A stretch of 49,194 nt of DNA, filler included, from Candidatus Woesearchaeota archaeon (GCA_047603125.1; 2 parts of 2 records of this genome joined end to end with filler, not necessarily neighbours in it); one strand, 5' to 3'; shown: positions 24,686 through 42,017, counted from the first letter of the whole stretch. Notes: a model not told the origin generated them from the sequence alone. Numbers and translations: made by a program.

Positions 24686-24785
24686 NNNNNNNNNNNNNNN
24701 NNNNNNNNNNNNNNNNNNNNNNNNNNNNNTTAATTAATTAANNNNNNNNNNNNNNNNNNNNNNNNNNNNNNNNNNNNNNNNNNNN
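24686..24785. other. Artificial contig-join spacer
   Basis: N44 + TTAATTAATTAA (stops in all six frames) + N44. Confidence 0.98.
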
Positions 24786-27374: not shown

Positions 27375-27435
27375 ATGTATATCAAAACGCCCTTCACTTA
27401 TCAACTTAAGTTTAAAATAGTGGAAAGATTTTCAA

Positions 27436-27828
27436 TCACAAGAGATTAAATAGCTGTTTTGCATCAGTTTTCGAGGTAATGATAAATTCCCCGCCATGAT
27501 TTTTCATTTTCTGTTCAAATTCATACACGCCAGAGTATGAAAGAACAACCCTCGTTTGTAAGACATCTGCCGGGTCACCTCTATTGCGACTTGTCGATAG
27601 TTCTTGTACACTAATAGACCAAATGCGAAATTGTGAACTGCCCATAAGCGATTGCAAGTATGTTTGAAAGTCAAGCGCTTTTGTAAAAAAGCAATCTTTT
27701 CCTTCCTCGTCATAATACGGACCATTTTGTAAGACTGTTTTTATGTGCGAGTCAGTTGATGCAAAACTCAAATGAAACTCGTGTTCATTAAAACGTGATA
27801 AGAAAACACAAAATTGCTCATAATCCAT
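27436..27828 (-). CDS. hypothetical protein
   Basis: 130-aa ORF with TATA-like element upstream. Confidence 0.55.
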   Translation of the reverse strand: MDYEQFCVFLSRFNEHEFHLSFASTDSHIKTVLQNGPYYDEEGKDCFFTKALDFQTYLQSLMGSSQFRIWSISVQELSTSRNRGDPADVLQTRVVLSYSGVYEFEQKMKNHGGEFIITSKTDAKQLFNLL

Positions 27829-27886
27829 AGTACTCTCAAAAGGCGAGTATATTAAATACTTTTGGGTTTCTCCGAGTTTAACCTGA

Positions 27887-28079
27887 AAATAACAAAAGTT
27901 CGCTGCTCGAAGCTAATTGAAAAACACAAATTTTTCAAACTCAGAAAACTAGAAAGTTTTCTAGGTATCCCCGCCCTAAAGGGACGGGGTATTACACTTC
28001 TCACCTAATCGCGAACTTTTGAATTGAGAGTTTGCGGACTAAAGTCCGGGGTATTATACCCGCGAAACCCTCAATAAGA
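27887..28079. repeat. 193-bp hairpin-rich repeat, copy 1 (MITE/PATE-like)
   Basis: 188/193 identical to 36612-36804; contains CCCCGCCCTAAAGGGACGGGG and CGGACTAAAGTCCG hairpins. Confidence 0.9.
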
Positions 28080-28080
28080 T

Positions 28081-28228
28081 AAAAGAGCACCTTGCAGCCA
28101 GATAAGAAAATTCGGTGATTGTTTGAAAGTTTCTTTCAAACTTGAGGATGTGAATCCGAAAAGTTTGCAAGCGAATTTTCGCATAGCACTCAAAGCGGGA
28201 CTCTTGAGTAAAATCTGCGTGCTCTTTT
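28081..28228. ncRNA. CTT-bulge three-way-junction element, copy A
   Basis: AAAAGAGCAC-CTT-GCAG ... AT-CTGC-GTGCTCTTTT enclosing nested stems. Confidence 0.7.
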
Positions 28229-28290
28229 TGAGAAACAATTTTTGAATGAAGCAGGTTTCTCACCCACTACAACATACGTAATCGAGAACC

Positions 28291-28824
28291 TCATCTTCTT
28301 CGCAGACTCCCTAATACATCTTCCAAATTAGCTCGATATAATATTGTCGCCCTCACATCACTTGGCGTATACCGCTCTAATTCAATTTGAAGATGAATAT
28401 TCCCAGGAATATACGATGGTTTCTTAATATCTGTTCTAAAACGCACATCATCAGAGAAGCGAACAATAATATCTCCGGAGACAGGTGTCTGCAAAGGAAT
28501 TCTCATACGCGGAGCTAACATGTCAAATCGAAGCTGGACATTTTTTTGATAACCGTCATAGTCAAGAGACTGAATGTCTACATTTGACACTGCAAACTCA
28601 GTTTCTTTTTGAACATGATTTTGCAAACGATTTGCAAGTCGATCTACTGTTGTTATCCGCCTCGACTGCATTTCCCGCAATAATTCTTGCTCTTGATTTA
28701 ACACATGTTGAGCATATAAACTATTCCTCACAGGTTGTGGGGGACCAACAAAAGAATCATCAACATGTTGGGACACTGCGTGAAATGGTAAGAGAAAAAG
28801 TCCAATTGCTGCCTTGTAATTCAT
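28291..28824 (-). CDS. Hypothetical secreted protein
   Basis: Signal-peptide-like N-terminus from MNYK; TTTATAA upstream. Confidence 0.6.
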   Translation of the reverse strand: MNYKAAIGLFLLPFHAVSQHVDDSFVGPPQPVRNSLYAQHVLNQEQELLREMQSRRITTVDRLANRLQNHVQKETEFAVSNVDIQSLDYDGYQKNVQLRFDMLAPRMRIPLQTPVSGDIIVRFSDDVRFRTDIKKPSYIPGNIHLQIELERYTPSDVRATILYRANLEDVLGSLRRR

Positions 28825-29003
28825 GTGATTGTTTTTTTGTTTATTCTTTATAAAGCTGTCACACAAGATACGTTACGAATATATCATTATGGGCATATCC
28901 ACCTGTTAGCCCAATCGTCCCACCAACACTGTACACCAGGCGGTTCAGTTGGAGGAGGATTCATTGAAGGTGAACCTGAACTGACTTGCTCATTCGAATT
29001 ACT

Positions 29004-29645
29004 CTAAGAACAAACTTCCGTATAAGTTATTAGTCGGGTACCGTCAAAATATGTCAGTTCAGGTTTTGGCTGACAGGGACCACCAGTTTCCCAAAGACAC
29101 CCTTCAAATTGGCGACACTCTTCATAAGTTGTCAAGTCAAGGCAAGCAAATGGATCTAAGTTACTAATCACACAGTCTTGAACAACCCCGTATATATTTT
29201 CCTGACCTTCGTTATGGCAAACGTCTCCTCGCCGAGTACTTCCAAAATTACTTTTTGCAGTTGAATCACACGGACCTTGAATAGTTTCATCTAATCTAAA
29301 TAAAAGTGTATCACCATTATCAGATGAATCCAATGAAATTCCTTGTTTTGCGTCTTTGAGAACTTGCATTGCTCTGTTTAAATCCATATCCTCGCCAGCA
29401 ATATTAACAAAAATCTTATCACCTGTATGAAAACGATTTCCGCTTGGGGTTACAGCTGGAGGTTGTGAAGGACTTTCATCATTCAAATACAAGTGAAAAT
29501 AATTCAATGCCGAAATCAAAGTTACATTCGCAGTTTCATTCCATTCAACATAAATCTCATCAAAATTATGTGTAGCGGTGAGTGCAAATGCTAAACTAAA
29601 GCAAGTTACTAAAAATACAATTCCGATGAGTAGTTTGTTGTTCAT
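29004..29645 (-). CDS. Cys-rich secreted protein; possibly extends through TAG to 28887
   Basis: Signal peptide MNNKLLIGIVFLV, GAGGTG SD, ATGA-coupled to the upstream gene. Confidence 0.75.
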   Translation of the reverse strand: MNNKLLIGIVFLVTCFSLAFALTATHNFDEIYVEWNETANVTLISALNYFHLYLNDESPSQPPAVTPSGNRFHTGDKIFVNIAGEDMDLNRAMQVLKDAKQGISLDSSDNGDTLLFRLDETIQGPCDSTAKSNFGSTRRGDVCHNEGQENIYGVVQDCVISNLDPFACLDLTTYEECRQFEGCLWETGGPCQPKPELTYFDGTRLITYTEVCS

Positions 29646-30370
29646 GTACACCTCACAGTAGCATGCCAAGGGTTCGAACCAAATCTGCTAGTACAACCAT
29701 TGCGACAAAACCAACCCGCATACCCTAGACCTTCAAAATAGGCAATAACATTGTTTGCAGGCCACTGATTATTAGGACTGTTTATCCAAATTCCCTGATC
29801 TTCTCCATAAGTCGAACTTCTAATAGTTGTGCCCATCTCTTGAGCTCGAGTCTTTCCGTCCCTAAAACGTTGTTCTGCCGAATATCCTGCTAATTGAGTA
29901 TTAGTTACTACATTACTAGTTTGTCTCGCGGCATTTGCAGGTTCAAGACGTACTCCATAAGGATTCTGACAAATACGAGGATCGCCTGTAGATAAAACCG
30001 TATCAACAGGCGCGATATGAGGATGCTCACATAAATCAGTTTCACCACCATGTAATCCAAGACATTCGATTGTATAAGGATTTATTTCATTCCTTTGCCC
30101 TTGAGTACAGCCACCAAACGTACTTGCACAAACCCCATCAACAGGATCAGGAATAGCATTTTCCAACAACTCATCATACAAATAATTCAACACGTGATTC
30201 AAATTACGATCATCTTGAAGGACAGCACTACCTTTGTGACCCGATAAAACCGAACCTTGATAATCATCCACGTCAGTCTCAGGAACAGAACTCATCCAGC
30301 TCATACCACCAGCTGCAAAAACCCCAGCTATCAAAAAAACAACACCGAAAATAATCAAGCCCGAACGCAT
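29642..30370 (-). CDS. Cys/Gly-rich secreted protein
   Basis: Signal peptide, several Cys, 242 aa. Confidence 0.8.
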   Translation of the reverse strand: MRSGLIIFGVVFLIAGVFAAGGMSWMSSVPETDVDDYQGSVLSGHKGSAVLQDDRNLNHVLNYLYDELLENAIPDPVDGVCASTFGGCTQGQRNEINPYTIECLGLHGGETDLCEHPHIAPVDTVLSTGDPRICQNPYGVRLEPANAARQTSNVVTNTQLAGYSAEQRFRDGKTRAQEMGTTIRSSTYGEDQGIWINSPNNQWPANNVIAYFEGLGYAGWFCRNGCTSRFGSNPWHATVRCT

Positions 30371-30403
30371 AAGAAAAACTAGGGCAGTTGCCCTTTAAAA
30401 ATA

Positions 30404-30868
30404 TTAATGTTCTTTACCAAAAATATGGCGCTCCAAATTCAATTTTTTCCCTCCACCTGAAAATAGTAAGGACAAATTAACCATAAAGAGTGCAAATACA
30501 GGAACAAAATTACCCCAACCAGCACCTTCCGAGGAAGCAACGCCTAAAATTGCAGCAATATCACCAGTATGAACTGTAACAATTGCAACAAGAAGCGTCA
30601 AGCTAATAGCTAATGCACCCCAGCGCGTAAAGAGACCGAGTACTATCAGCAATGCGCCTCCAAACTCAAAAAGTGTTGCTAGAAAGCCAAAAAACACAGG
30701 GGCTACGCCAATATTGCTGCCAAGCCATGCCCATGTTTCAGGACCACCAGTGACTTTGTTCCATCCAAAATGAAATAAAAACACTACTCCTACTAGTAAG
30801 CGGAGTATGAAGATGTTATAATCTGAGATATCAGACATAAATTTCGATAAACCAGTATTTTTTTTCAT
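30404..30868 (-). CDS. DoxX-family membrane protein
   Basis: LRLLVG..F..FGWNKV, EFGG.LL.LGLFTR.A, AI.TVH; GGTGA SD. Confidence 0.9.
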   Translation of the reverse strand: MKKNTGLSKFMSDISDYNIFILRLLVGVVFLFHFGWNKVTGGPETWAWLGSNIGVAPVFFGFLATLFEFGGALLIVLGLFTRWGALAISLTLLVAIVTVHTGDIAAILGVASSEGAGWGNFVPVFALFMVNLSLLFSGGGKKLNLERHIFGKEH

Positions 30869-31011
30869 GGAGTCACCAACAACATTCTCATTTAAAATAT
30901 TTACGAAAAACGAAACTACCTCAAATAATGGTTTCTTCACACCCCTTTTTAAAACCCAAAGAAACATTTAAATAGAAGATACCATTCTAACATAGTGACG
31001 AGGTTGACATT

Positions 31012-32178
31012 ATGAAAATTGTATATCTTTTTGCCATTGCCCTTCTCGTAAGCGCGTGTGCAACCATACCAGAACTAGAACAAAATCAAACAACAAATCT
31101 TACGGATGATTTTTTTACACCCATACCGTCTGAGCCAATTGAACTGCCGCGACCAACTGAACCGGCACTAAATCAAACACCACAGGAATATATCCCTACA
31201 TTTGATGAGGGCGAACTCATAGAAATTGCAAAGGAAAATATCATTGATCCCGATGGTGATGAGTTAACTATCACATTTACAGAACCATTTAATCAAACAG
31301 GTCAGTGGCAAACACAAGTTGGAGATGCAGGAACTTATACAGTTACTATTACTGCAAGCGACGGTGTATTAAGCACAACAAGAACGGTTACATTTCGTGT
31401 AAACCCCGTTAATTTACCACCTCAAATCACAGTTCCAGAAACAATTACTGTGCAAGAAGGTGAACGAGTATCCTTGCGACCACAAGTTTTTGATCCAGAT
31501 GGAGACCAAGTACAAGTAACATATTCAGGGTGGATTAGCACCGACACATACCAAACACAATTTGGTGATGCAGGAAATCATACAGTTACAATAACAGCGA
31601 CTGATGGATTTCACACTGTCCAAGAAAATGTCACTATACAAGTTCTTCGCGTGAACAGACCGCCAGTACTCCAAGTACCAGAAACAATTATCGTTGATGA
31701 GGGCGATATTGCCATTATCGAAGCAACAGCAGTTGACCCTGATGGAGACCAAGTAAATATTAGCTTTGGAAGTCCATTTAATCAAACTGGATTCTGGCAA
31801 ACACAGCGGGGTGACGCAGGAAGATACCGAGTACAAGTAAGCGCAACTGATGGTGAGAATATTGTCACACAACCAGTCGTTGTTGAAGTTGCTGCCGTGA
31901 ACCTACCTCCAGTTATTGAAGCGCGCGATGTCTTTGCACGTGAAAATGAAACGGTCGTACTTGATTACAATGTAACTGACCCTGATGGTGATGAAGTAAC
32001 AGTCACAATCTCAGGATGGATGGACAGCGACACAAAACAAACAACATTTGGTGATGCAGGAAATCATTCGGTAACAATAACGGCAAGCGATGGTCAACTC
32101 AGTGCAGAACAGACAATTACTGTGCATGTTGAGCAGGTGAACAGACCACCACAATTTGTCGGCGACATTTTCCGTTAA
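31012..32178 (+). CDS. Lipoprotein with four cadherin/Ig-like repeats
   Basis: Lipobox LVSAC, four DPDGD...VTITA(S/T)DG...N(L/R)PP repeats. Confidence 0.85.
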   Translation: MKIVYLFAIALLVSACATIPELEQNQTTNLTDDFFTPIPSEPIELPRPTEPALNQTPQEYIPTFDEGELIEIAKENIIDPDGDELTITFTEPFNQTGQWQTQVGDAGTYTVTITASDGVLSTTRTVTFRVNPVNLPPQITVPETITVQEGERVSLRPQVFDPDGDQVQVTYSGWISTDTYQTQFGDAGNHTVTITATDGFHTVQENVTIQVLRVNRPPVLQVPETIIVDEGDIAIIEATAVDPDGDQVNISFGSPFNQTGFWQTQRGDAGRYRVQVSATDGENIVTQPVVVEVAAVNLPPVIEARDVFARENETVVLDYNVTDPDGDEVTVTISGWMDSDTKQTTFGDAGNHSVTITASDGQLSAEQTITVHVEQVNRPPQFVGDIFR

Positions 32179-33128
32179 ATGAGTCGATAATACTCTTGCA
32201 CAAAGGCTTGTGCAAGTGTTTTATTTTTTATTATCAAAATATTTTCATTATTTCTTGTATCAGCATTTTGAGAAGGATTCATAGAACCAGCAATAATTGT
32301 TTTCTCATCTATAACAAACACTTTATGATGCATTGAACCTCGAGGTATTGACTTTCGAATAACTGATATGTTTTGCAATAAAAAGGGATCAAACTGACTA
32401 TATTGACTCACAAGGCGCGTATCCATTATTCCCTGAACCCGAACACCATTATAGGATTGAATAATAAGTTCATTTCCTATTTCATTATGAGTAAAGGCAA
32501 ATGTCAAAAAATAAATCGATTCAGTTGCTTGGCGCAAATGACCAATAATTTGACGAGCACAGGAATCTTGGGGACAAAAATACACTTCAACAGGCGTCAT
32601 TGCCACCTCAGTCTGTGTTATTTGCGTAGGAGCAATATTTGTAAAATTTCCAGCATACAAATTCAAAAATGCATCCATATATATGCGAGACAATGATTCT
32701 GATTCAAAAAACACAATATTATTTGCACTAATGTGAAAACTCGTATGAGTCGGATTTGCAGAGCCACTAAAACCACGCTTTTGATCAATAATGCAAAATT
32801 TATGATGCATGTACGCCGAACGAGTGTCCGGTCGTAAATACGGACGATCAAAGACATAGGCGCGATCAATAATGACTTTTACAATAACACCATCCGCAGA
32901 CTTTGCATCAAATAAATCAATAAGAGGTTGATAACTAAATTCATAAAACGCACAGAGTATAGAAGAATTTGCCTGCTCAACCATGAAAAATAATTCATCC
33001 TTACAGTCCGGGCACATCAAAACAGAGAGTGATTCTTGAGAAAAGACAACTTTCTCATCAACACTTGAAAACCCCCAGAAAAAAAGAATCATTGCTACAA
33101 ATAAAAAGAAAATACAATCCCATCTCAT
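32175..33128 (-). CDS. Phospholipase D / Nuc-like nuclease with two HKD motifs
   Basis: MHHKFCIID..GSAN and MHHKVFVID..GSMN; N-terminal TM. Confidence 0.92.
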   Translation of the reverse strand: MRWDCIFFLFVAMILFFWGFSSVDEKVVFSQESLSVLMCPDCKDELFFMVEQANSSILCAFYEFSYQPLIDLFDAKSADGVIVKVIIDRAYVFDRPYLRPDTRSAYMHHKFCIIDQKRGFSGSANPTHTSFHISANNIVFFESESLSRIYMDAFLNLYAGNFTNIAPTQITQTEVAMTPVEVYFCPQDSCARQIIGHLRQATESIYFLTFAFTHNEIGNELIIQSYNGVRVQGIMDTRLVSQYSQFDPFLLQNISVIRKSIPRGSMHHKVFVIDEKTIIAGSMNPSQNADTRNNENILIIKNKTLAQAFVQEYYRLI

Positions 33129-33877
33129 AAAAACACCCGATGAAAATTTTGTGCAAGCATATTTGCAACTTCTCCTTCATCGAGTTGTTTTATTTTTGCT
33201 ATGGTTTTTACTGTAAAAGCGATTGTGGCAGGCTCGTTTTTCTTTCCTTTTTCAAAATGTAAATATGGCGAATCCGTCTCCAAAAACATCCGTGAGACCG
33301 GAACTAATTGAATCAATTGTTGAAATTGTTGATCAGTATATGCTTTTGATGGTATGGAAAAAAAGATAAGTGGATTTTTCAACGCTTCTTTCACCAAAGT
33401 TTGCTTGCCACAAAAACAATGCAATATCGCAGGCGTTTTTGCATGCGCATGTACCATGTCAATCACATCTTGCTCAGCATTTCTCGAATGAATAATTGTT
33501 GGTTTTTCAATGTCCTTTGCAAGTTCGAGTTGTTTTTGAAAATAGATTTTTTGTTTTTCTCGGCCTTGAGAATCCTTAGTCCATTTATAATCCAATCCGA
33601 TTTCACCAACTGCCAAAATAGTCTTTGCATGCTCACGCACAAAATCAAGCATTTGTGTTAATTGTTCAGCTGAAGAGTCAACAACCGTATCCGGATAAAT
33701 ACCAAGTGCACTTTTACAAATATCATATGTTTTTTCCAAGAAAAGCACTTGTTTCATAGATTCCAAGTCAGTTGCATTACTAATAATTAAACCAACGCCG
33801 GCTTCTTTTGCGCGAGTAATTATACCCTCAACATCTTGACAAATATCCAAATGTGCATGTACATCAGTCAGTTTCAT
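33125..33877 (-). CDS. tatD: TatD-family nuclease
   Basis: DVHAHLD, GEIGLDY, IHSR, LHCF, LETDSPY. Confidence 0.95.
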   Translation of the reverse strand: MKLTDVHAHLDICQDVEGIITRAKEAGVGLIISNATDLESMKQVLFLEKTYDICKSALGIYPDTVVDSSAEQLTQMLDFVREHAKTILAVGEIGLDYKWTKDSQGREKQKIYFQKQLELAKDIEKPTIIHSRNAEQDVIDMVHAHAKTPAILHCFCGKQTLVKEALKNPLIFFSIPSKAYTDQQFQQLIQLVPVSRMFLETDSPYLHFEKGKKNEPATIAFTVKTIAKIKQLDEGEVANMLAQNFHRVFL

Positions 33878-34821
33878 GTTCTTTTTACCAGTTTGCAAAC
33901 AAAGAACCCTTCCGTATTATTATCTTGGGGCCATATACGTAAACATTGAGAAACGCGCGAATCATAGACCTCACCTTCAAATTCTGTAATGGGCTCACTG
34001 CGTTTTATTTGCAAATCAATTGGTGCGACATCCATATCCTCGTACTTTTGTAAAAATTGACTTATAACACCCTCATTTTCTTGTGGCTCCAATGTACAAG
34101 TCGAATACACAATAACACCACCCGGTTCAAGATGTCGATAGGCTTTTTCTAAAATACGTAGCTGTGTTCTTGCAAGTCGAACGATCATCCCGGGGTTCCA
34201 CATCATCAATGTCTTTGGCGATTTTCGAATCGTCCCCGTCCCTGAACAAGGCGCATCAACAAGAATTTTCGTAAAAAATAATGAACGGTTCAGTCTATTT
34301 GCATCATTATGTGAAATTAAAACATTTTTACAACCCATACGCTGCACATTAATACCAAGAGCTGCAATTCGCGAACCAACATATTCATTTGCAATAATTA
34401 ACCCTTCGTTTTGCATCATCTGTGCCATTTGTGTTGTTTTTGAACCAGGAGCAGCGCACATATCAAGTACGCGATCCTCACTTGTTGGCTGCAAAACTAA
34501 CGGAGGAATGGCACTTGCCGGATCTTGCACATAAATATATCCTTGCGCATGCTCAAGCAAATTTCCAACGTCTCTTCGCGAATCATGCTCAATCCAAAAA
34601 TGCTCCAAAGACCACGGAACCGGCGTCAATTTCCAATCTCCAAGACGAGATACGAGCTTTTGAACAGAAATCTTCAGCGTGTTGACACGAATTCCCCTGC
34701 GATTAAACGCAAGCGAGTACTCAAGAAATTTCTCATAGGAATCACCCAAAAGTTCACGATAACGCTTTTCAAACTTAGGCTTGACTATAATTTTTTCTTT
34801 ATTATGAAACGGTTCGAGCAT
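33874..34821 (-). CDS. RsmB/NOP2-family RNA m5C methyltransferase
   Basis: IRVNTLK, DMCAAPGSKT, DAPCSG, YSTCT, ENE, EGFFV. Confidence 0.95.
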   Translation of the reverse strand: MLEPFHNKEKIIVKPKFEKRYRELLGDSYEKFLEYSLAFNRRGIRVNTLKISVQKLVSRLGDWKLTPVPWSLEHFWIEHDSRRDVGNLLEHAQGYIYVQDPASAIPPLVLQPTSEDRVLDMCAAPGSKTTQMAQMMQNEGLIIANEYVGSRIAALGINVQRMGCKNVLISHNDANRLNRSLFFTKILVDAPCSGTGTIRKSPKTLMMWNPGMIVRLARTQLRILEKAYRHLEPGGVIVYSTCTLEPQENEGVISQFLQKYEDMDVAPIDLQIKRSEPITEFEGEVYDSRVSQCLRIWPQDNNTEGFFVCKLVKRT

Positions 34822-34931
34822 AATAAGAGAAAAAGATGACTCGTTTAAAAGATTTGCCATAAACAAATCAAAAAATCTTCAATACTCCTCAACAGAAGGG
34901 GTTTTTAAAGAAAAGTGTTTAATTATTGTCA

Positions 34932-35083
34932 CAAACACTATTGCCTTGGTGCGAAATCAGAAATCGAGTGATTGTTGAACAATATCTTTGTTCAACATCG
35001 TTGGAAAATGACTTTTCCAACGTTTTATGCAGCGAAGATTTCGTATTTAGACAACCGTCCTAATATCACCGCAATAGTGTTTG
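34932..35083. ncRNA. CTT-bulge three-way-junction element, copy B
   Basis: CAAACACTATTGC-CTT-GGTG ... AT-CACC-GCAATAGTGTTTG with two perfect 10-bp internal hairpins. Confidence 0.7.
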
Positions 35084-35101
35084 CAGGTAATAAAACGAAA
35101 T

Positions 35102-35401
35102 TCAAACATTTTCTTTTAAAGAAGGTTTTTCAAACGTTTCAAGATATTTTGTAAAATGCACCAAACAGTCATGACCACAAAATGAAGCCTTCTTTTTAAA
35201 ATCCTCAGGGCCGAAAACTAATGTATATGTTTTTGGACTTGCACAAACAAATGCACCACAAGTTGCACACACACTTTTGCTTTGCAATTCAATGAGCTGT
35301 TTTTGTTTTATAAGCAACGTAGCAAGCTCTCCAGTTTTTTGTAGTTGTTCAAGTTGTTGTAATTGTTCATAGGGTAATTGTTTAATCCAGTTTTTTATCA
35401 T
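35102..35401 (-). CDS. Small protein with TRASH/MYM-like Cys4 metal-binding motif
   Basis: CATC...FCGHDC; SD-like sequence before MIKNW. Confidence 0.7.
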   Translation of the reverse strand: MIKNWIKQLPYEQLQQLEQLQKTGELATLLIKQKQLIELQSKSVCATCGAFVCASPKTYTLVFGPEDFKKKASFCGHDCLVHFTKYLETFEKPSLKENV

Positions 35402-35483
35402 GTTCACACACCTTTCATACCTCCGATGCCCCCATGTTAAAAACATAGGGGCTGGAGGCAAAACAGTTTTTCGCCAAGTTTGA

Positions 35484-36050
35484 TTAGTGAATTCTTGTTA
35501 GCCTCTTGAATTGTTTGAGATCGTCTCTAGCAACAAACCTCGTATCAATCGCATACGTTTGATCTTTGTATGGAAGATGAATCAGTTTTGGAGGTAAGGG
35601 CTTTTTCTCATTTGAAATAATAATTCGACAAACCGCATCCCCATACTCTACAAGGTAAATCTCATTTTCCTGTGTAAATAATCCTGCGTAACGATAATAA
35701 AAAGCAATGAGTGGCCCCTGCACTAACTTTGGCAATTGCCAAATTCGCGCAATGACTTGCTTGTCGATATCAAAATCAAAATAACTCCGGTATTGAATGA
35801 GCTTACTTGCCGCACTCACAAAAAACACATCCTTAGTCAATTGATAGAGAAGACGAGGCTTTCCCGCTTTTGAATTTGAAACGCGGCGTTTTTGCACAAT
35901 ACCGCTTGCTTCAAGTAAACGAAGCTGCATGGAAATATGCGCAACCGAGGTTTTTAATTGAGCAGATAATTCAGTCGGACTCGATTCATTTTTTGCTAAG
36001 CGTGCAATAATATCCCACTTTGTATCCGAAACAACCATCTGCGCTTCCAT
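35484..36050 (-). CDS. ArsR-like wHTH transcriptional regulator
   Basis: TKWDIIARL..SPTELS..L.TSVAHIS.QL.LLEASGIV, GKPRLLY. Confidence 0.85.
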   Translation of the reverse strand: MEAQMVVSDTKWDIIARLAKNESSPTELSAQLKTSVAHISMQLRLLEASGIVQKRRVSNSKAGKPRLLYQLTKDVFFVSAASKLIQYRSYFDFDIDKQVIARIWQLPKLVQGPLIAFYYRYAGLFTQENEIYLVEYGDAVCRIIISNEKKPLPPKLIHLPYKDQTYAIDTRFVARDDLKQFKRLTRIH

Positions 36051-36087
36051 AAAGAAAAATATGCAACCACTTATATTTAAATGTTTT

Positions 36088-36122
36088 GTTAACTACGTGA
36101 ATTATATAATAATGTAGTTAAC
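36088..36122. promoter_or_regulatory. Inverted repeat, putative operator
   Basis: GTTAACTAC-N17-GTAGTTAAC just upstream of the TATA box of the ArsR-like gene. Confidence 0.5.
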
Positions 36123-36172
36123 TAATTACTTAAATACTAAGTCTAAGAGCTGTTTTTTTCTGAATTAAATCA

Positions 36173-36209
36173 AAAAGAGCACGCAGATCTAACTGCAAGG
36201 TGCTCTTTT
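36173..36209. repeat. Miniature CTT-bulge element (copy D, inverted orientation)
   Basis: Reverse complement AAAAGAGCAC-CTT-GCAG-TTAG-AT-CTGC-GTGCTCTTTT equals the ends of copy A. Confidence 0.8.
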
Positions 36210-36222
36210 CTTAAATAAAATC

Positions 36223-36609
36223 TCAAGAATCGTCTAAATCATCAAAAGGTTTCTCACTTTCACTCTTCCAATACACGTTGTAATTTTTTAAATCACTCTT
36301 TAATTTTGAAAAATTGCCCTCAAACTTCACACATCGATCATCAATATAGACTATCGAAGGATATTTTGTACGAGTCACTTCAAGTTTTGGAAAGTGAAAT
36401 TTTTCAAGCCAACGTACAATTAATTCTGGTTCACGCGCACTAAAAACAACGGGCGTATATCCCGACTCAAGTAAATGCAAAACGAATTCTTTTGCTCCCG
36501 CAAGAGGTTCTCCTAACACGTCTTCTCCTTTCCAACCATCATAATGGGAAAGTACACCATCAAGATCAATAGAAACTATTTTTTCTTTGTGCCAATCGCG
36601 AGTCGTCAT
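36223..36609 (-). CDS. Small capless HAD-superfamily phosphatase (phage-like)
   Basis: IDLDGVL, VFSAR, KYP..YIDDR; start MTTRDW. Confidence 0.82.
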   Translation of the reverse strand: MTTRDWHKEKIVSIDLDGVLSHYDGWKGEDVLGEPLAGAKEFVLHLLESGYTPVVFSAREPELIVRWLEKFHFPKLEVTRTKYPSIVYIDDRCVKFEGNFSKLKSDLKNYNVYWKSESEKPFDDLDDS

Positions 36610-36611
36610 AG

Positions 36612-36804
36612 AAATAACAAAAGTTCGCTGCTCGAAGCTAATTGAAAAACACAAGTTTTTCAAACCCAGAAAACTAGAAAGTTTTCTAGGTATCCCCGCC
36701 CTGAAGGGACGGGGTATTACGCTTCTCACCTAATCGCGAACTTTTGAATTGAGAGTTTGCGGACTAAAGTCCGGGGTATTATACCCGCGAAACTCTCAAT
36801 AAGA
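36612..36804. repeat. 193-bp hairpin-rich repeat, copy 2
   Basis: 5 substitutions relative to 27887-28079, same orientation. Confidence 0.9.
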
Positions 36805-36812
36805 AAAACAAC

Positions 36813-37130
36813 TTATTTTTTTAAAAGCTTCGTTAAAAGCCGCACTTCTTCAATTTGTTCTTGAGAAATATTTCGAAGATATTTGAGTTCTTGAGAATTT
36901 TCATAGATAAGAATTGTCAAATCCTCACGTATATTTTCTGCAATTGCAACGCCAATAATCATAAAAATAAGCATCAGCCACAACATGACAAATAAAATAA
37001 CTGAAGAGGTTACTCCTTCTTCTAACCCAATTATTCGATCAAGCAAAAATAACCCAAGGAGTACTACACCTAAACCCATGACCAATAATATCTTTTCAAA
37101 GACATTTGTCCGACGTGCCACCTTAACCAT
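36813..37130 (-). CDS. Two-TM membrane protein with C-terminal coiled coil
   Basis: Start MVKVA with TTTATAAA upstream. Confidence 0.75.
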   Translation of the reverse strand: MVKVARRTNVFEKILLVMGLGVVLLGLFLLDRIIGLEEGVTSSVILFVMLWLMLIFMIIGVAIAENIREDLTILIYENSQELKYLRNISQEQIEEVRLLTKLLKK

Positions 37131-37248
37131 AGTCGTATTACGGCGCATAGTATTTATAAATATGACGGAAGTTTGGATTAGGGAAATTCGTATTTTAAAT
37201 CTCAAAAAAATCACAAACTATTAATATCCCACCCCTGCCAAAAAACAC

Positions 37249-37668
37249 ATGAAAATACCAATCAAACGACTAGACAAAACACTCCCCATACCAAAACACG
37301 CAAGAGAACACGATGCAGGACTTGACATCTATGCCGCAAAAGATGTGCTTCTCAAACCACATGAACCACAAATTGTCCCAACTGGTATTCAAACCGCATT
37401 TCCTCCAGGTTTTGTCATCCACATTTGGGACAGAAGTAGCCTTGCAAAAAAAGGTGTAAAAACACTTGGCGGCGTCATAGACGCAACATATCGGGGAGAA
37501 TACATGGTTTCTATGGTGAATCTCACAAAAGAACCAATCTCAATTACAAAAGGAGATCGCATTGCACAAATGGTCATTGTCAAGCACGAAACAATTGAAT
37601 TTGAGGACGTCGATGAATTGGACGTTACAAATCGAAATCAGCACGGCTTTGGAAGCACTGGACGCTAA
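37249..37668 (+). CDS. dut: Trimeric dUTPase
   Basis: AGLD, RSS, GVIDATYRGE, RIAQ, R..GFGSTG. Confidence 0.96.
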   Translation: MKIPIKRLDKTLPIPKHAREHDAGLDIYAAKDVLLKPHEPQIVPTGIQTAFPPGFVIHIWDRSSLAKKGVKTLGGVIDATYRGEYMVSMVNLTKEPISITKGDRIAQMVIVKHETIEFEDVDELDVTNRNQHGFGSTGR

Positions 37669-37749
37669 GAAAAGTAAAATACAATATAGTACGCAAAAAA
37701 CATTGCGACAAAGACAAAAAGAATATACCAAAAAAATTGTTTCGCTGCG

Positions 37750-38778
37750 CTACGAAGGTTGTCTTGCTCCATTCTCTAAATACTCCAAAAACACATCTAA
37801 ATATTTTTGCTCAAATGTAATCCCGCCAGCTTTTTCATGCCCTCCACCAACAACATCAGGAATGTGTTCTTTTACTGCCGAGAGAAATCCACCCGCATCA
37901 AACTCCAATTCTTCTGGAACACGCATACTTGCAATAATGTTCCCCTTGTATTTATTTAAGACAACAATGGGCTTTTCTTTCATATACCGAGAGCAAATCA
38001 CACCCTGAATATTGCAATCACACTCGATAATTGCATAATCAATATCGCCTAATTGTGAAATTCGATATTTTTTATTATAATGTTGGCGCAAATGCATTTT
38101 ATATCGCTGCAATTCCTCCACGAGGGGATGGCGAGAATAAATAATATCTTCAAATGATTGCACTGATTTGAGCAATGCAAGCGGAACTTCACCATTCCAA
38201 TGCATACGTTTGCCTGTGTTAAACAAGGATACAAAAAGTTCTATCTTATAATATGCATCATTGGAATAACGCGACTGCTTTTTCTCCAAAAGTGAGCCAA
38301 GCAACTCATGTGCGCGAATTTGTAAATCAACGGGCAACTGCTCAAACTTTCCACTATCCCCAAAATATCCTAAGAGCACCAGAAATATCATGTATGAATC
38401 AGTCGTATCTTTGAGCAACTTATCCCAAATAAGAAAAGAACAAGATTGGCACTGTGGATCGTATAAAGAAAGTAACATTTCATCCGCATACTCACAAGGA
38501 TGATGGTCAATGTAAATGACTGTATCTAAATCCAACTCCCGACTTGGCTGAATGTCTGAACAAATGATAATTTGCGCCGCAGGGTCAATTTCATCAATAT
38601 CTTGTTGACGAATTTCAAACACATCCCCTTTTGAGACTGTGCGAACACTCTGGCAGACATCTTTTATCATATGATATAATAATGCCCCACTTGTTACCCC
38701 ATCACAATCCCAATGCGTTGCAATGACGACGCGCTTGTCTTTGACAAGATGAAGAAAATGATCATACTGCGAACTCAT
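37750..38778 (-). CDS. DHH/DHHA1 phosphoesterase (RecJ/NrnA-like)
   Basis: HWDCDG, IDHH, SMR, GGGHEKAGG. Confidence 0.92.
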   Translation of the reverse strand: MSSQYDHFLHLVKDKRVVIATHWDCDGVTSGALLYHMIKDVCQSVRTVSKGDVFEIRQQDIDEIDPAAQIIICSDIQPSRELDLDTVIYIDHHPCEYADEMLLSLYDPQCQSCSFLIWDKLLKDTTDSYMIFLVLLGYFGDSGKFEQLPVDLQIRAHELLGSLLEKKQSRYSNDAYYKIELFVSLFNTGKRMHWNGEVPLALLKSVQSFEDIIYSRHPLVEELQRYKMHLRQHYNKKYRISQLGDIDYAIIECDCNIQGVICSRYMKEKPIVVLNKYKGNIIASMRVPEELEFDAGGFLSAVKEHIPDVVGGGHEKAGGITFEQKYLDVFLEYLENGARQPS

Positions 38779-38898
38779 ACAGTGACAATCCCCTAAACAT
38801 TTAAAAATATTGTGTCAGTCTGTCCAGTGCCGTCACCACTCAAAAATTAAAACAAAACCGTAATATTTAAATACTAGTTGTACTTACTCTCTAGTTAA

Positions 38899-39072
38899 CA
38901 CACACCTGCTGTTTGCGCAGCAAAACCTCTTTGTCCTGTTTGGCTCTGCCAAACGGGTCATATTCACCTCTTTTTCCTGCCCAGGTGAGTCCTCGCGGCT
39001 TATTTGGGCAGGTTTAAAGTCACCTCTCATCCCCACGGGTTGTTTGAAAAGACGACCCGGAAGGGATTTTTC
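38899..39072 (+). ncRNA. Candidate four-hairpin sRNA with anti-SD-like linkers
   Basis: TATTTAAATA upstream, four stems with G-U pairs on the + strand, GAAA tetraloop, 3' T-tract. Confidence 0.7.
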
Positions 39073-39099
39073 TTAAATTCAAAGAATAGAGCTTACAAA

Positions 39100-41022
39100 C
39101 TAGCGTTTTGCACGAGCAGGCCGTTTACGTGGCTTTTTCTTGACAATCACTTTTCTTTGTTTTTTTGCTGATTTACGATATGCTCTTACAATATGAGCGC
39201 TCCCAAAACACAGAAGGGAAAACACTAAGCCCACGATAATACCCAGCAAAAAGAGTGCTTCTTTAGGCAATTCTACGTCATTACGAACCGACATTTGACG
39301 AGAAGTTTGACCTCGTTGAGTTGTCGGTAAATACGGATCTAAATTGGATAATTCAATTGCATATTGTAAATACAGCAAACTTGCAAACGGGTCGTGTTCG
39401 CGAAGTGAAATTCCATATTCATAATAAGAATATCCAATTATAGGAAATGCTCCTTGTTGAAATTGATTGAAAATAATCTGATTAGCAATTGCAATCTTCT
39501 CATCAATAAATTGCGAGACATCCGCATTTAATCCAATAGAGGATAAGAGCACATCCATGGACGCTTTTGCTTTTGAAGCATAAAATAGACATAATTCTAC
39601 ATTTCCTCGTTGTCGTTCTTCTTGAGCACGTTCAAGGTCAGGAAATTCTCTTTGTGAGAAAAATGGGTAAAGCTGCACATAACTCCGTCTTTGAGTCGCC
39701 TCATCAATACGAATTGAACATGATTCACGAAGAGCAGATTGTGAGATTTGTATTGGCTCGCCATGATGTGCAAAAAACTTCGACCACGAGTGAGCACTCA
39801 TATATCGTTCCTGCGCATTAACTAAGCGAAAAAGTTTTTGATAATGATTTGTCATATTCTGCGCACGTTCAAAATGATCCTGCGCCTCGACAACTCGCTC
39901 TTGCACTAACATATATGTTTGCAAATCAGTCATTGTTTGATAATTTCGATCAACAGGAGACTCTGCAAATAGCTCTTGAATTGAATCAGATAACTCATCT
40001 AAATCAGTGTGTAAATTCGCTAAGAATGCAGCATTCAAACCCGCCCCATAACAAAACGATGCAGCAGAGTAAAAAGAACCAGACTGCATTGCAGCCTTGC
40101 TTCGCTCCAGTGAATCTTGAACCGCTTGAAATGTCTGATTCACATCAATAGAAGAATTCGGTAAAACAGTTGCATTTCCAGTAATTTGAATCGAATCAGG
40201 AGCAATCTCTATAATTGTTCCATTATTGTTATACATTATATCAAAAGAATCGACAACTTCTTGCGTTCTCTGACAAAGCTGATTGGCAAGTTCACCCATC
40301 GTTTCGGTATAAAATTCAGGTAATGAAATATCAATGTATGAGAGTGAATACTCTCTTCCTGTTAATTCGGTTAGCACATCATATAAATTTCCAACTTTAA
40401 CGACACGAACACCTAGACTCGCACCATATTGCTCAAAAGATTCTCCATTTTCAGGCGTGGAACTTGTTTGATTTGATTCATTAGTCACATTCATCTGGCG
40501 CAAATCACTCATCGCAATCTCACCAACAGGAATCATCACGGTTCTAATTCTATTATTAGAAGCAGCCTCAATTTTTTCTCGAATACCACCGACGGGGCCT
40601 ACCAAACCACCAGAGTTAACTGTTCCTGTTATAGACATACGTCTATTGACTTGATGACCTTCTAGAGTTGCAACTGTTACAGCCGCAATTGCCGCTCCTG
40701 CACTCGGCCCACCAATAACAGTTGAGCCGCTTCGAATAGTATAAATAAAATCATATTGATTACAATCAACTTGTGTAAATGTACATGCAATCTCTTTTGC
40801 AATCCGTGTTGATATTTGCGTATCGAGTTGTGTGAGTGGATATGTATCAATAAAAACTCTGCCAGAACCTGGAATAATTTCAACGGTTAAATCTGCCACA
40901 CTTCCCACACGCCCATTTTCACTTTCGGCAACTGCTAACAACGGCAAAGTGTTTTGCATTGTTTGTGAATACGCAAAAGGCGCAAGTAATGCAAGACATA
41001 CTATAATAATACCCAATCTCAT
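39100..41022 (-). CDS. Membrane-anchored Lon-like (S16) serine protease
   Basis: Signal peptide, PGSGRVF, GGPSAG, TGTV..G.VGPVGGIREK, C-terminal TM and basic tail; no ATPase domain. Confidence 0.9.
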   Translation of the reverse strand: MRLGIIIVCLALLAPFAYSQTMQNTLPLLAVAESENGRVGSVADLTVEIIPGSGRVFIDTYPLTQLDTQISTRIAKEIACTFTQVDCNQYDFIYTIRSGSTVIGGPSAGAAIAAVTVATLEGHQVNRRMSITGTVNSGGLVGPVGGIREKIEAASNNRIRTVMIPVGEIAMSDLRQMNVTNESNQTSSTPENGESFEQYGASLGVRVVKVGNLYDVLTELTGREYSLSYIDISLPEFYTETMGELANQLCQRTQEVVDSFDIMYNNNGTIIEIAPDSIQITGNATVLPNSSIDVNQTFQAVQDSLERSKAAMQSGSFYSAASFCYGAGLNAAFLANLHTDLDELSDSIQELFAESPVDRNYQTMTDLQTYMLVQERVVEAQDHFERAQNMTNHYQKLFRLVNAQERYMSAHSWSKFFAHHGEPIQISQSALRESCSIRIDEATQRRSYVQLYPFFSQREFPDLERAQEERQRGNVELCLFYASKAKASMDVLLSSIGLNADVSQFIDEKIAIANQIIFNQFQQGAFPIIGYSYYEYGISLREHDPFASLLYLQYAIELSNLDPYLPTTQRGQTSRQMSVRNDVELPKEALFLLGIIVGLVFSLLCFGSAHIVRAYRKSAKKQRKVIVKKKPRKRPARAKR

Positions 41023-41083
41023 AGAAAAGACCAAACAGGCACAACTTATAAATATTCTGGAAGTCAAATTAGTGACAACAGAA

Positions 41084-41181
41084 AATTATAATGCCTTGGC
41101 GCAGAATCAGAATTTCGCGAAGCTCTGCGCCGGAGAAATTCGCAAGATGAACCACTGTTCGAAGATCGCCGCATTATAATT
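41084..41181. ncRNA. CTT-bulge three-way-junction element, copy C
   Basis: AATTATAATGC-CTT-GGCG ... AT-CGCC-GCATTATAATT. Confidence 0.65.
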
Positions 41182-41236
41182 AGAATTCGCCGTTTGGTAC
41201 TAAATGAGAGAGAAAAGCAATATACCTTAATAAAAA

Positions 41237-41989
41237 TCACAACAACCCTTTTTGCCAAGCCTGAATAATAAAACGAGAAATAGTTTGAATATCCGGCTGA
41301 CCTCCTTTTTTGAGTCGGTTTTTTGCAATTGCTAACTCTTCAAGGGCAGAATCTTTATTTTTAAGCGTAACAGAGAAAAACTTTTCAAGCACTTTCCATT
41401 TTTGTTGCTCATGTAATGTATCTAAGATTGTTTGCGCAACTAAATCAATATCTTTGACTCTGTCTGCGTTTTTAGAAGCAATAAGTGCTAATTGCACTGA
41501 ATCTTGCTGATTAATAGGAATAACCCCTGGAGAATCTAAAAGCATCACACGCGAGGAAATACGCACCTTTTGCGCACCTTTTGTTCGACCTGAACGTGAG
41601 CTCATCGGCGCACTTGTTCTGCCTTTCAGTGCATTTATTACACTCGATTTGCCCGTGTTTGGATACCCAACTACACCCACGAGTATTTTTTCTTTTTTGG
41701 ATTTTGCACTTACTGAATAAATCATTTCACGTAAAATTTTTGTTCCGTACCGAAGTCTGCTAGAAACGAACACACAATTTTTCAATCCTTTTACTTTTTT
41801 TTCAAGATAGGACTTTTCTACCAAATCACATTTATTCACACAAATAATAAGACGTTTATTTTGCTGCTCTACAAGTGACTCTACTAATTCATTTCGTGTC
41901 AGGTCTAAAAGTCTTGCGTCAACTACTTCAATTATAATATCCGACTCATCAATGACTTTTCGTAAAACCTGTCCAAAGGATCGTTTCAT
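41237..41989 (-). CDS. Circularly permuted ribosome-biogenesis GTPase (YlqF/RbgA family)
   Basis: DAR, NKCD, GYPNTGKS, DSPG in G4-G1-G3 order. Confidence 0.93.
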   Translation of the reverse strand: MKRSFGQVLRKVIDESDIIIEVVDARLLDLTRNELVESLVEQQNKRLIICVNKCDLVEKSYLEKKVKGLKNCVFVSSRLRYGTKILREMIYSVSAKSKKEKILVGVVGYPNTGKSSVINALKGRTSAPMSSRSGRTKGAQKVRISSRVMLLDSPGVIPINQQDSVQLALIASKNADRVKDIDLVAQTILDTLHEQQKWKVLEKFFSVTLKNKDSALEELAIAKNRLKKGGQPDIQTISRFIIQAWQKGLL

Positions 41990-42017
41990 AGAAGAGAAAA
42001 GAAAAGACTCCTTTATA

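Follow-up and report, generated by a model that had tools for sequence, protein, structure and literature searches.

MITEs with a covarying three-way-junction core in the genome of a Candidatus Woesearchaeota archaeon

Three MITEs in the window and their relatives in the genome

The window, i.e., the whole stretch of DNA analysed, comprises 49,194 nucleotides, filler included, of Candidatus Woesearchaeota archaeon (GCA_047603125.1), with parts of two records of the genome joined end to end. Three intergenic segments in it, A, B and C, had been put forward as a structured RNA family, each unit being bounded by an outer stem. We found that these segments are conserved Y-shaped cores inside MITEs and not free-standing RNA genes. 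The unit extends beyond the outer stem P1, which had been taken as its limit, up to terminal inverted repeats flanked by target duplications (Table 1). MITE A has a degenerate A-type terminal repeat on its left, with GAGTTTAACC at 27874, and ends on the right in TTGAATGAAGCA at 28242-28253. The repeat nested in this element, family X, has at least 17 copies at 87-97% identity by blastn; the copy in MITE A starts with CAAAAGTTCGC at 27893 and ends with CTCAATAA at 28070-28077, and family X modules also adjoin the cores of other subfamilies. On the minus strand, the TATTAAATA box to the left begins 30 nt ahead of the ATG at 27828, a spacing that is the genome-wide mode. MITE B begins with GAAAAGTGTTTAA at 34910 and closes with CAAACATTTTC at 35103-35113; its last 12 nt are also the final codons and stop of the ORF at 35102-35461. 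MITE C, with more than 20 copies at 82-98% identity, has the ends TAGTGACAAC at 41070 and GGTACTA at 41196-41202. The product of the neighboring Lon-like gene contains a Lon_C domain, and its start is probably a leaderless ATG at 41022-41020. Each core follows the stop of a minus-strand ORF, at a distance of 62 nt for A (ORF at 28291), 18 nt for B (35102) and 55 nt for C (41237), which agrees with the original prediction for these three copies. As a rule for the family this placement failed: orientation to tandem neighbor genes was 29 versus 26 copies, i.e., without strand bias, and 43 copies were found between divergent genes.

Table 1. Coordinates, strand and evidence for the elements in the window and the features next to them
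Feature	Position	Strand	Evidence or remark
TATA-like box TATTAAATA of left-hand gene (ORF 27436-27828)	27850..27858	-	14 nt from MITE A left end
Left 8-bp direct repeat GGTTTCTC, target-site duplication	27865..27872	.	Abuts MITE A end; same 8-mer at 28254
MITE A, complete, A-type long form	27873..28253	+	Terminal repeats and duplication
Nested copy of family X, unrelated repeat of ~190 bp	27888..28077	+	Inserted at AATAA between left terminal repeat and P1
Core A: P1, CTT bulge, P1a, P2 with two-hairpin long-form module, P3	28081..28228	+	R1 match L076:3295-3443 (window 28080-28228), 64.3 bits
Right 8-bp direct repeat GGTTTCTC	28254..28261	.	Directly outside MITE A
Left 7-bp direct repeat TTTTAAA	34903..34909	.	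Same 7-mer at 35114
MITE B, complete, B-type long form	34910..35113	+	Terminal repeats and duplication
Core B	34932..35083	+	R1 match L076:10149-10295, 59.1 bits
Right 7-bp direct repeat TTTTAAA	35114..35120	.	Flanks MITE B
TATA box TTATAAAT of Lon-like gene	41046..41053	-	16 nt from MITE C left end; fits -30 mode
Left 3-bp duplication AAT	41067..41069	.	Read from sequence
MITE C, complete, C-type, 133 bp	41070..41202	+	Terminal repeats and duplication
Core C	41084..41181	+	R1 match L076:16299-16395, 81.7 bits
Right 3-bp duplication AAT	41203..41205	.	Flanks MITE C

The expectation of a dispersed family was borne out by further copies, in numbers well above what chance would give. An nhmmer search of the 1.12-Mb genome gave 130 merged loci, with a total length of 14,026 bp or 1.26% of the genome, and the covariance model R1, built from 20 copies, gave 122 matches at E ≤ 0.01, one pair of which is a single element in two overlapping loci. 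The family thus numbers about 120-130 copies, at a density of ~110 MITE copies per Mb, and falls into at least 10 subfamilies, which differ from one another in their terminal repeats and in the sequences of P1, P1a, P2 and P3. The elements are 133-381 bp long, non-coding and dispersed, and 4 of the 130 loci overlap ORFs of at least 100 aa, as judged from crude ORF calls. The terminal inverted repeats are GGCTTCATCC / GGATGAAGCC in the A type, with 7-bp duplications, and TAGTTAGCGG / CGTCGACTA in the C/D type; the B-type terminal repeat is GACAGTGTTTGAA, with 8-bp duplications in sister copies, and the E-type repeat is GGGTTTGTGTAAAAA. Flanks of 3 bp were identical in 20 of 24 C/D-type terminal-repeat pairs, and the control gave 4 at two of three positions or better. 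For the A type, 7-bp flanks were identical in 10 of 46 candidate pairs and matched at six or more of the seven positions in 13 of 46, with 0 in the shifted control. The length of the duplication was fixed per class, at either 3 or 7-8 bp; four metagenome runs yielded no empty sites. The entire core was kept in all subfamilies and little else was, the deletion end-points hugging P1. An A-type derivative that lacks the 5' half of P2 was present at two loci (C25:7906-7982 and C69:1553-1631), indicating that an incomplete fold has moved at least once.

Conservation of the fold

The predicted strings were all found in the window sequence at the positions of cores A, B and C, and the three cores share one order of parts: P1, the CTT bulge, the 4-bp helix P1a (GCAG/CTGC in A, GGTG/CACC in B, and GGCG/CGCC in C), an 8-nt linker, P2, GCA and the P3 hairpin. 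The P1 arms are separated by 80-130 nt. Between subfamilies the stem sequences are fully replaced, and one architecture is common to at least 10 subfamilies and at least five genera; its invariants are a bulge of exactly 3 nt, a helix of exactly 4 bp, and the near-invariant CCTTG and GATT. In the R1 alignment of this genome, 93.6% of the stem cells were paired, versus 65.8% after shuffling and 32-46% when the partners were slid; 23 of 25 pairs showed double-sided change, and the covariation score was 0.647 versus 0.178, values that come from an alignment fitted to the covariance model, so the structure is somewhat favored in them. Helix 2 was paired in 96.1% of cases in the same alignment. In 45 copies from five other genomes and one metagenome contig, pairing reached 92.6%, versus 36-45% with slid partners, and the covariation score was 0.829 versus 0.234, again in an alignment fitted to the model. 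The fold is therefore a real, dispersed family whose structure is conserved while its sequence diverges, and the compensatory stems with conserved bulge and junction residues held up well.

On the strand antisense to the transposase gene of the parent element described below, the non-Watson-Crick cells within single copies were 87 GU/UG versus 51 AC/CA, and a second count gave 46:21; the ratio is no higher than about 2:1, and it comes from copies that are not independent. The minimum free energy of core A was -43.0 kcal/mol on the plus strand and -41.9 kcal/mol on the minus strand. When Rfam was searched at the gathering score, only two tRNAs elsewhere were matched and nothing at A, B or C; in the E-value mode over the three cores, the best matches were unrelated families at 11-25 bits versus thresholds of 34-111 bits, none of them near its threshold. 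The ribozyme families of Rfam were included and did not match the fold. In agreement with the original prediction, the fold does not belong to a known Rfam family.

A transposase-bearing parent and insertion near promoters

An enzyme encoded elsewhere had been suggested to serve these sites, and a transposase-bearing insertion sequence was indeed found in sister genera. In one of them (G007:C6), an intact 1268-bp element has a perfect 15-nt terminal repeat and an ORF of 390 aa. This ORF matched DDE_Tnp_1 at 57.1 bits, versus a Pfam cut-off of 23, and its best NCBIfam match was ISH3 (NF033541), at 107.9 bits versus a cut-off of 225. By the curated-model criterion, the transposase of the parent is a distant relative of ISH3 and not a member of that family. 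The R1 core of this element lies at L107:1153-1257, on the strand opposite to the transposase ORF. The same layout was found in G005:C28 and in the metagenome copies L195 and L196, and all four autonomous elements have I-type ends. In the insertion sequence, the core lies some 20 nt inward of one terminal repeat, on the strand antisense to the transposase gene, the last 12-39 codons of which it overlaps; the ORF ends within the core, after 36-105 nt of it, or just beyond. A clear target duplication was not seen at the intact copies. More distant relatives of the insertion sequence, at 41-45% identity, have the same terminal repeats, with other hairpin cargo in the slot of the core. An autonomous parent with A-type ends was not found in 10 genomes, and none with any type of ends was found in this assembly, which holds only a transposase relic without residues 65-300 (G000:C58); the search of this genome for transposases of seven Pfam families found none. 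The family was present in six of nine other genomes of the same taxonomic family and in 4 of 150 genomes sampled from the whole order, and no copy was found in any of 31 genomes of other taxonomic families.

The distance from the element ends to the promoters of neighboring genes was analyzed, counting the ends with a TATA-like heptamer within 55 nt, the remaining searched ends having none. The heptamer was found at 14-16 nt in 19 of 36 such A-type ends (96 searched), at 13-14 nt in 20 of 33 C/D-type ends (99 searched), and at 13-16 nt in 11 of 22 B/E-type ends (103 searched). The distribution of TATA distances was flat in a control of 1141 positions. Either end of the MITE may face the promoter, and the center of the target cut is ~11.5-12 nt from the TATA box in both the 3-bp and the 7-bp class. 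This genome is 90% coding.

As a whole, these data are very probably best explained by a MITE family with a folded core that originated from an ISH3-like DDE insertion sequence, under selection on the spread of the element. The copies would have been moved in trans by ISH3-like DDE transposases, in a cut-and-paste reaction with staggered target cuts, and integration would be aimed at a point ~11-12 bp upstream of the TATA box.

Role of the fold and comparison with known systems

Covariation of the fold from one subfamily or genus to another, together with the decay of individual copies, suggests that selection maintains it through the spread of the element and not at the host locus. We tentatively propose, at somewhat under an even chance, that the fold may be a cis-acting single-stranded structure on which efficient mobilization of a copy depends; it would form in the strand that runs antisense to the transposase gene. 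The A-type derivative without the 5' half of P2 counts against this proposal. It is possible, if rather doubtful, that the fold instead works as a regulatory RNA for the insertion sequence, and that the MITEs merely inherit it; such an RNA would either be antisense to the transposase mRNA at its 3' end or make up the structured 3' end, or terminator, of this mRNA. Antisense control has a precedent in IS10, the transposase of which is controlled by RNA-OUT. All four transposase-bearing copies examined have the core lying across the 3' end of the transposase ORF, on the other strand; GU exceeds AC on the antisense strand; and 55 of 99 copies have A5+ tracts immediately beyond P1, to be read as T tracts in the transposase-sense direction, versus 12 of 99 with oligo-T tracts on the other side. 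However, the T tracts are absent from the D, B, I and J types, no inward promoter for such an RNA was identified, and a regulatory RNA does not explain why the full core was retained in every MITE subfamily with deletion end-points hugging P1.

A targeting role for the core, which as DNA or RNA would tether the transposition complex to promoters bound by TBP/TFB, seems unlikely. Such a role would account for two element classes, unlike in their ends and duplication length, striking one and the same position upstream of the TATA box, and the 3-bp and 7-bp classes have only the core, kept in all subfamilies, in common and yet the same cut-to-TATA distance. Nonetheless, siting near promoters could be a property of the transposases, an effect of DNA bending or, in so densely coding a genome, partly one of purifying selection, and either element end may face the promoter. 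It is also improbable that the fold has no function, its arms being kept complementary by template-switch correction of quasi-palindromes while the module hitch-hikes. Short hairpins are prone to such correction, single copies decay neutrally, and the distant relatives have other hairpin cargo in the same slot. Against this, the P1 arms are far apart, and one architecture, with its exact bulge and helix lengths and its CCTTG and GATT, persists across subfamilies and genera despite the turnover of the stems.

A free-standing structured RNA that serves the host, whether a 3'-UTR element, a ribozyme or a riboswitch, is very unlikely. The strong covariation, the conserved junction residues and the location of all three window copies behind a gene would fit it, but the folds are internal modules of MITEs, with terminal repeats and duplicated targets on either side, the parent element is intact and encodes its transposase, and no Rfam family, ribozymes included, was matched; moreover, the lack of strand bias relative to host genes and the decay of single copies argue against a host 3'-UTR function. 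The other original proposal, a recombination site in single-stranded DNA of the attC or REP/PATE kind for an integron integrase or a Y1/HUH transposase, is extremely improbable. In its favor are an imperfectly palindromic fold that leaves conserved bases unpaired and a Y1_Tnp fragment in the genome, but this fragment has 67 aa, is near no copy and is without counterpart in four relatives that carry the family, the elements have terminal inverted repeats and fixed-length target duplications, which to our knowledge neither kind of enzyme makes, and the parent encodes a DDE transposase. Known classes were rejected on similar grounds: REP/RAYT or IS200/IS605-derived PATE elements on the Y1 result, the target duplications and the absence of the TnpB zinc-ribbon from all five genomes searched; integron attC on outer stems that differ wholly between subfamilies, with no shared core site, and on terminal repeats, duplications and promoter siting; and a SINE-like retroelement on the absence of any RVT_1 match in this genome and the duplication length fixed per class.

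The preferred reading, a MITE family derived from an ISH3-like insertion sequence, can be compared with several known systems. The omega RNA of TnpB/IscB and the bridge RNA of IS110 belong to RNA-guided nucleases or recombinases and have a variable guide segment. They likewise form a structured module over the 3' end of a gene, abutting the element end; here, in contrast, the enzyme is of the DDE type, the module is antisense to the gene, no guide-like segment was seen and TnpB was not found. The BHB motif in substrates of the archaeal splicing endonuclease also has an outer helix that leads into a bulge of exactly 3 nt and a helix of exactly 4 bp, and the 5' position of the bulge on the helix strand matches the relaxed hBH form. 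In the predicted fold, the first 3-nt bulge and the 4-bp helix are found in nearly all copies, whereas the second bulge and the inner helix are absent and a three-way junction stands in their place; the CTT bulge is conserved here, and BHB requires no bulge sequence. According to PMC3942029, TnGBS/ISLre2-type elements, which are Mutator-like DDE elements, insert upstream of sigma-A promoters, at a short and constant distance and in a fixed orientation. The fixed short spacing upstream of a core promoter is common to both systems, but here the transposase is DDE_Tnp_1/ISH3-like, the target is an archaeal BRE/TATA promoter, and either end of the element may face it.

ISH3 and the archaeal insertion sequences of the IS4/IS5 type resemble the parent in their single DDE_Tnp_1 transposase of ~390 aa, their length of ~1.27 kb and their short terminal inverted repeats, and MITEs derived from ISH3, IS4 or IS5 elements are likewise non-autonomous forms that arise by internal deletion, the case here being the relic G000:C58. 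The difference from the ISH3 family lies in the NF033541 score, which is below the cut-off, and in the duplications of 3 or 7-8 bp. From descriptions of that family, we know of no covarying three-way-junction module by the 3' terminus of the transposase, and in a literature search we found no description of such a module in ISH3-like elements. Correia/NEMIS, RUP, BOX, ERIC, bcr1 and Nezha are small multi-copy intergenic MITEs of bacteria, with terminal repeats, duplications and a stable predicted fold, and structured bacterial MITEs often lie beside promoters or terminators. PMC10969869 covers general features of such elements, and PMC11602168 gives 105 MITEs per Mb in 'a Woesearchaea genome', as a census figure only. 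The present family differs from the structured bacterial MITEs in its archaeal host, in its density of ~110 copies per Mb, in its three-way junction with an optional two-hairpin domain, and in a fold that covaries across subfamilies unlike in terminal repeats and duplication length. It is an unusually well-structured MITE family, although elements of the kind of which it is a variant are already known.

Elements carrying the folded segments

The sequence strings that the original prediction listed for segments A, B and C were all present exactly as described, and the three segments lay 62, 18 and 55 nt past the stops of minus-strand ORFs, as claimed. The proposal that they match no Rfam family also held: within the window, only two tRNAs elsewhere reached the gathering score, and sub-threshold noise was all that fell over A, B and C. 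Their fold stability was about equal on both strands, and the genes around them are archaeal housekeeping genes (GatE-type GatB_N+GAD, Lon_C, RsmB, TatD and dUTPase). The assembly comprises 1,115,666 bp in 70 contigs, with a GC content of 36%. The listed sequencing runs that contain window 33800-42100 are lake-water metagenomes, with no RNA run among them. The window joins contigs C54 and C55, and the finding is on the second, where window position equals C55 position + 24785. At the joint (24686-24785), a 12-nt island stands between two 44-N runs, and no feature is readable across it.

Further copies were abundant. By blastn against the genome, dozens of copies of A and C were found with 80-98% identity; two nhmmer rounds gave 130 merged loci totaling 14,026 bp, or 1.26% of the genome; and R1, a covariance model of the core, gave 122 matches at E<=0.01, a total that includes one element twice because of overlapping loci. 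Hence, a dispersed family sharing one architecture was supported, but A, B and C are not themselves the repeat units, as the true unit is larger and reaches out to terminal repeats. Unrelated P1 sequences told apart at least 10 subfamilies in the 105 of 130 loci that were parsed (labeled A, B, C, D, E/H, F, G, I and J). The order of parts was common to all of them: P1, CTT, a 4-bp helix, an 8-nt linker with a TCA end, and P2, closed by GATT...ATGCA and followed by GCA, the P3 hairpin, about 6 nt and the closing strands. P3 was a weak hairpin of 3-8 bp with a subfamily-specific sequence. Short and long forms were found in most subfamilies, the long one having a two-hairpin domain in the P2 loop; this module was rejected as an independent dispersed repeat, as 86 of its 90 pattern matches were inside cores.

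The ends of A-type copies were GGCTTCATCC and its complement; those of the C and D types were TAGTTAGCGG and CGTCGACTA, and the B, E, F and I types each had their own terminal sequences. The flanks of C/D-type copies showed identical 3 bp in 20 of 24 pairs. For the A type, 46 candidate pairs, which include many spurious pairings, showed identical 7 bp in 10 cases and at least six of seven in 13, while a shifted control gave 0. Duplications of B- and E-type copies were 7-8 bp long. Terminal repeats and flanking duplications are hallmarks of MITEs, and these results showed that the elements are transposed DNA. The MITEs and their parent insertion sequences are themselves ordinary; it is unusual that one module is common to subfamilies differing in ends and duplication length. 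No contig bridging an empty site was found in four lake-water DNA runs over 27300-42100, and the read-depth peaks at repeats in these runs reflect only repeat copy number.

Core-bearing MITEs and family X copies in the window
Feature	Position	Flanks	Remarks
MITE A	27873-28253	GGTTTCTC	left spacer with nested ~190-bp unrelated repeat
MITE B	34910-35113	TTTTAAA	
MITE C	41070-41202	AAT	
Family X, copy 1	27888-28077		
Family X, copy 2	36611-36802		

MITE B occupies the 3' end of ORF 35102-35461 (window 35102-35120), with its right end contributing the final four codons and the stop codon. Its duplicated target, TTTTAAA, is itself TATA-like and could serve as promoter for the downstream RsmB-like gene. 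Family X, a repeat of about 190 bp unrelated to the core, had at least 17 copies with 87-97% identity, along with a deletion form. It starts with CAAAAGTTCGC and ends with CTCTCAATAA, has AATAA flanks and hairpins with CTAAAG loops, and recurs in the A-rich spacer between terminal repeat and P1 in core-bearing MITEs of several subfamilies. Core copies were present at many contig ends of the assembly. These repeats break MAG assemblies and, in covariation screens, mimic structured-RNA genes.

Compensatory conservation of the core fold

The R1 model was built from 20 short-form copies, with P1, P1a (the 4-bp helix) and P2 specified by hand. In the R1 alignment of the genome, 93.6% of stem cells were paired, compared with 65.8% after shuffling and 32-46% when partners were slid; both-side changes were observed in 23 of 25 pairs, and the covariation score was 0.647 vs 0.178. 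In a second set of 45 copies, taken from five genomes other than this one plus a metagenome contig, 92.6% of cells were paired, with a covariation score of 0.829 vs 0.234, both alignments being fitted to the R1 model. CCTTG and GATT showed at least 90% conservation. Collectively, these data showed that the fold is conserved by compensation. Retention of a three-way junction via full compensatory turnover, in at least 10 subfamilies and several genera, is unusual, and more than 1% of the DNA in a 1.1-Mb symbiont-type genome is devoted to the core-bearing family.

Known motifs were compared by eye on both strands. The hammerhead was dropped because the junction strands do not fit CUGAUGA/GAAA, and the K-turn because the post-bulge helix opens with a G-C pair in 105 of 109 cases instead of sheared G.A pairs; an H-type pseudoknot was likewise dropped. 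For a candidate GATT/AATC loop-junction pairing, covariation was absent, and in types J and E the partner is missing. T or A tracts beside P1 were not universal, and the terminator reading was rejected.

Probable parent insertion sequence and distribution

In this assembly, searches with seven transposase Pfam families gave no match, and self-BLAST revealed no multi-copy segment of insertion sequence size. A-type end pairs 0.9-1.6 kb apart were considered as an autonomous element and rejected, as they match by chance within ordinary genes. A DDE_Tnp_1 gene directly adjoins an R1 match in two sister genera. The element of the sister-genus genome G007 is 1268 bp long, its inverted ends match perfectly over 15 nt, and it contains a 390-aa ORF; its core (L107:1153-1257) is on the strand opposite to the ORF, about 20 nt inside one end. 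A second sister-genus genome, G005, shares this layout, except that its transposase gene is broken. The best named family for this transposase was ISH3, at 107.9 bits vs a cut-off of 225. The transposase ORF ended anywhere from 36 nt into the core to 12 nt past it, and the encoded tail was not conserved. The genome under study (G000) keeps I-type MITEs with the parent's ends. It also holds a transposase relic (G000:C58:2-271) in which residues 22-64 and 301-351 are adjacent, residues 65-300 being lost with about 700 bp; this looks like an intermediate between insertion sequence and MITE.

The search for relatives gave 73 transposase homologues, mostly on 1.2-1.7-kb contigs. Transposase relatives in the genome collection amounted to 76 loci, all distant, with mostly 22-50% identity in the best tblastn segment and up to 60% in short segments. 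R1 found the core in only three of 39 scanned sources (34 of the 76 relatives plus five loci from G000, G001, G005 and G007), all three from G005 and G007. A first metagenome scan, with a single protein as query, gave no match; the second recovered 10 loci, two of them with a core. These two copies had 60-65% protein identity, with the core antisense at the 3' end of the gene. In copies of 41-45% identity, the terminal repeat was kept and other hairpin-rich sequence replaced the core in that slot. The slot between transposase 3' end and terminal repeat seems, from these sequences, to collect structured modules.

Other observations concern further mobile DNA. The metagenome loci L198:1100-1312 and L200:1900-2144 belong to these relatives of 41-45% identity and retain the terminal repeat CAGTATCTCCGAAT; the slot cargo is a CTAAAG-loop hairpin resembling family X in one of them and a long GC-rich stem in another. 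A 67-aa open frame at G000:C25:38117-38290 matches the first half of Y1_Tnp (IS200-type/RAYT) at 44 bits, near no core copy. G007 contains reverse-transcriptase matches, one in a 399-aa open frame, as well as an IS630-type DDE_3 gene that is broken (C1:25314-25955, C25:11943-12552 and C23:2546-2974); G000 has neither.

R1 matched six of nine other genomes of the same family, with 7-38 matches each, and none of 31 genomes that belong to different families within the order. Across the order, four of 150 genomes had matches, with only 27 candidates per genome scored; those in G087 and G046 had no adjacent transposase-sized ORF. The A-type end had 66 occurrences in G000 and 36 in G007, every pair being MITE-sized. 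In viral contigs, the long-form module pattern gave 0 matches, and R1 confirmed 0 of nine matches to a generic core pattern. According to a published census, 'a Woesearchaea genome' carries 105 MITEs per Mb (PMC11602168). A term search found no mention of Woesearchaeota in the main text of a 2026 archaeal insertion-sequence survey, DPANN appearing in its reference list only (PMC13343696).

Promoter context and role of the core

By crude ORF calls, 43 copies were between divergent genes, 29 and 26 between tandem genes according to orientation, and four between convergent ones. Promoters of this genome are markedly uniform, with a TTTAWAWA box that starts 28-32 nt before the called start codon (mode 29-30) and an A-rich BRE; 165 matches were found among 799 genes of at least 150 aa, and AAA occupies positions -5 to -3 relative to the box. 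This uniform distance implies that most mRNAs are leaderless. Among element ends with a TATA-like heptamer no more than 55 nt away, the heptamer was at 14-16 nt in 19 of 36 A-type ends, at 13-14 nt in 20 of 33 C/D-type ends, and at 13-16 nt in 11 of 22 B/E-type ends; the genome control was flat. With the duplications subtracted, we infer that the cuts of both duplication classes center about 11.5-12 nt away from the box. The end-to-TATA spread is too narrow for selection alone, because A and C have 29-31 nt of free spacer on the other side. Such a fixed distance upstream of BRE/TATA promoters is unusual.

Single copies contained 51 AC/CA mismatches alongside 87 GU/UG wobbles. These mismatches, and the lack of orientation bias relative to host genes, indicate that selection acts on the element lineage rather than on individual loci. 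Because the entire core, and hardly anything more, is retained in every subfamily, we tentatively favor a fold required in cis for mobilization, a reading to which we give somewhat less than an even chance; a derivative without half of P2, present at two loci, counts against it. The GU:AC excess (87:51 and 46:21) weakly suggests that the strand antisense to the transposase gene is the one that folds. An RNA that regulates the transposase, antisense or otherwise, is the next most likely reading, possible if rather doubtful: the core is antisense to the gene in the copies that adjoin it. We regard a promoter-targeting module as unlikely. A fold without function is just as hard to credit, given the compensatory changes. 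A host RNA is very improbable, with selection at the level of the lineage, and an attC/REP-type site, which the original prediction had offered, barely deserves mention beside a DDE parent.

There is a slim chance that the core is an element-encoded module used by the transposition machinery, common to the 3-bp and 7-8-bp classes, which would direct or license integration at a single set point some 12 bp upstream of TATA boxes in archaea, e.g., by binding TBP/TFB-bound promoter DNA. If true, a DDE transposase would have a structured nucleic-acid cofactor, and this would be the first case of promoter-tethered integration in Archaea. Should the favored cis requirement or a target-setting role hold, the fold would represent a novel type of cofactor in DDE transposition and a handle on mobile-DNA survival in extremely compact DPANN genomes.

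Our literature searches on MITE cores with a structure and on targeting close to TATA boxes gave nothing relevant for Archaea. The 3-nt bulge and exactly 4-bp helix of the core resemble one half of a BHB motif, whose second bulge has no counterpart in the core. Among published systems, the closest analogue is that of Mutator-like DDE elements, which integrate upstream of sigma-A promoters (PMC3942029).
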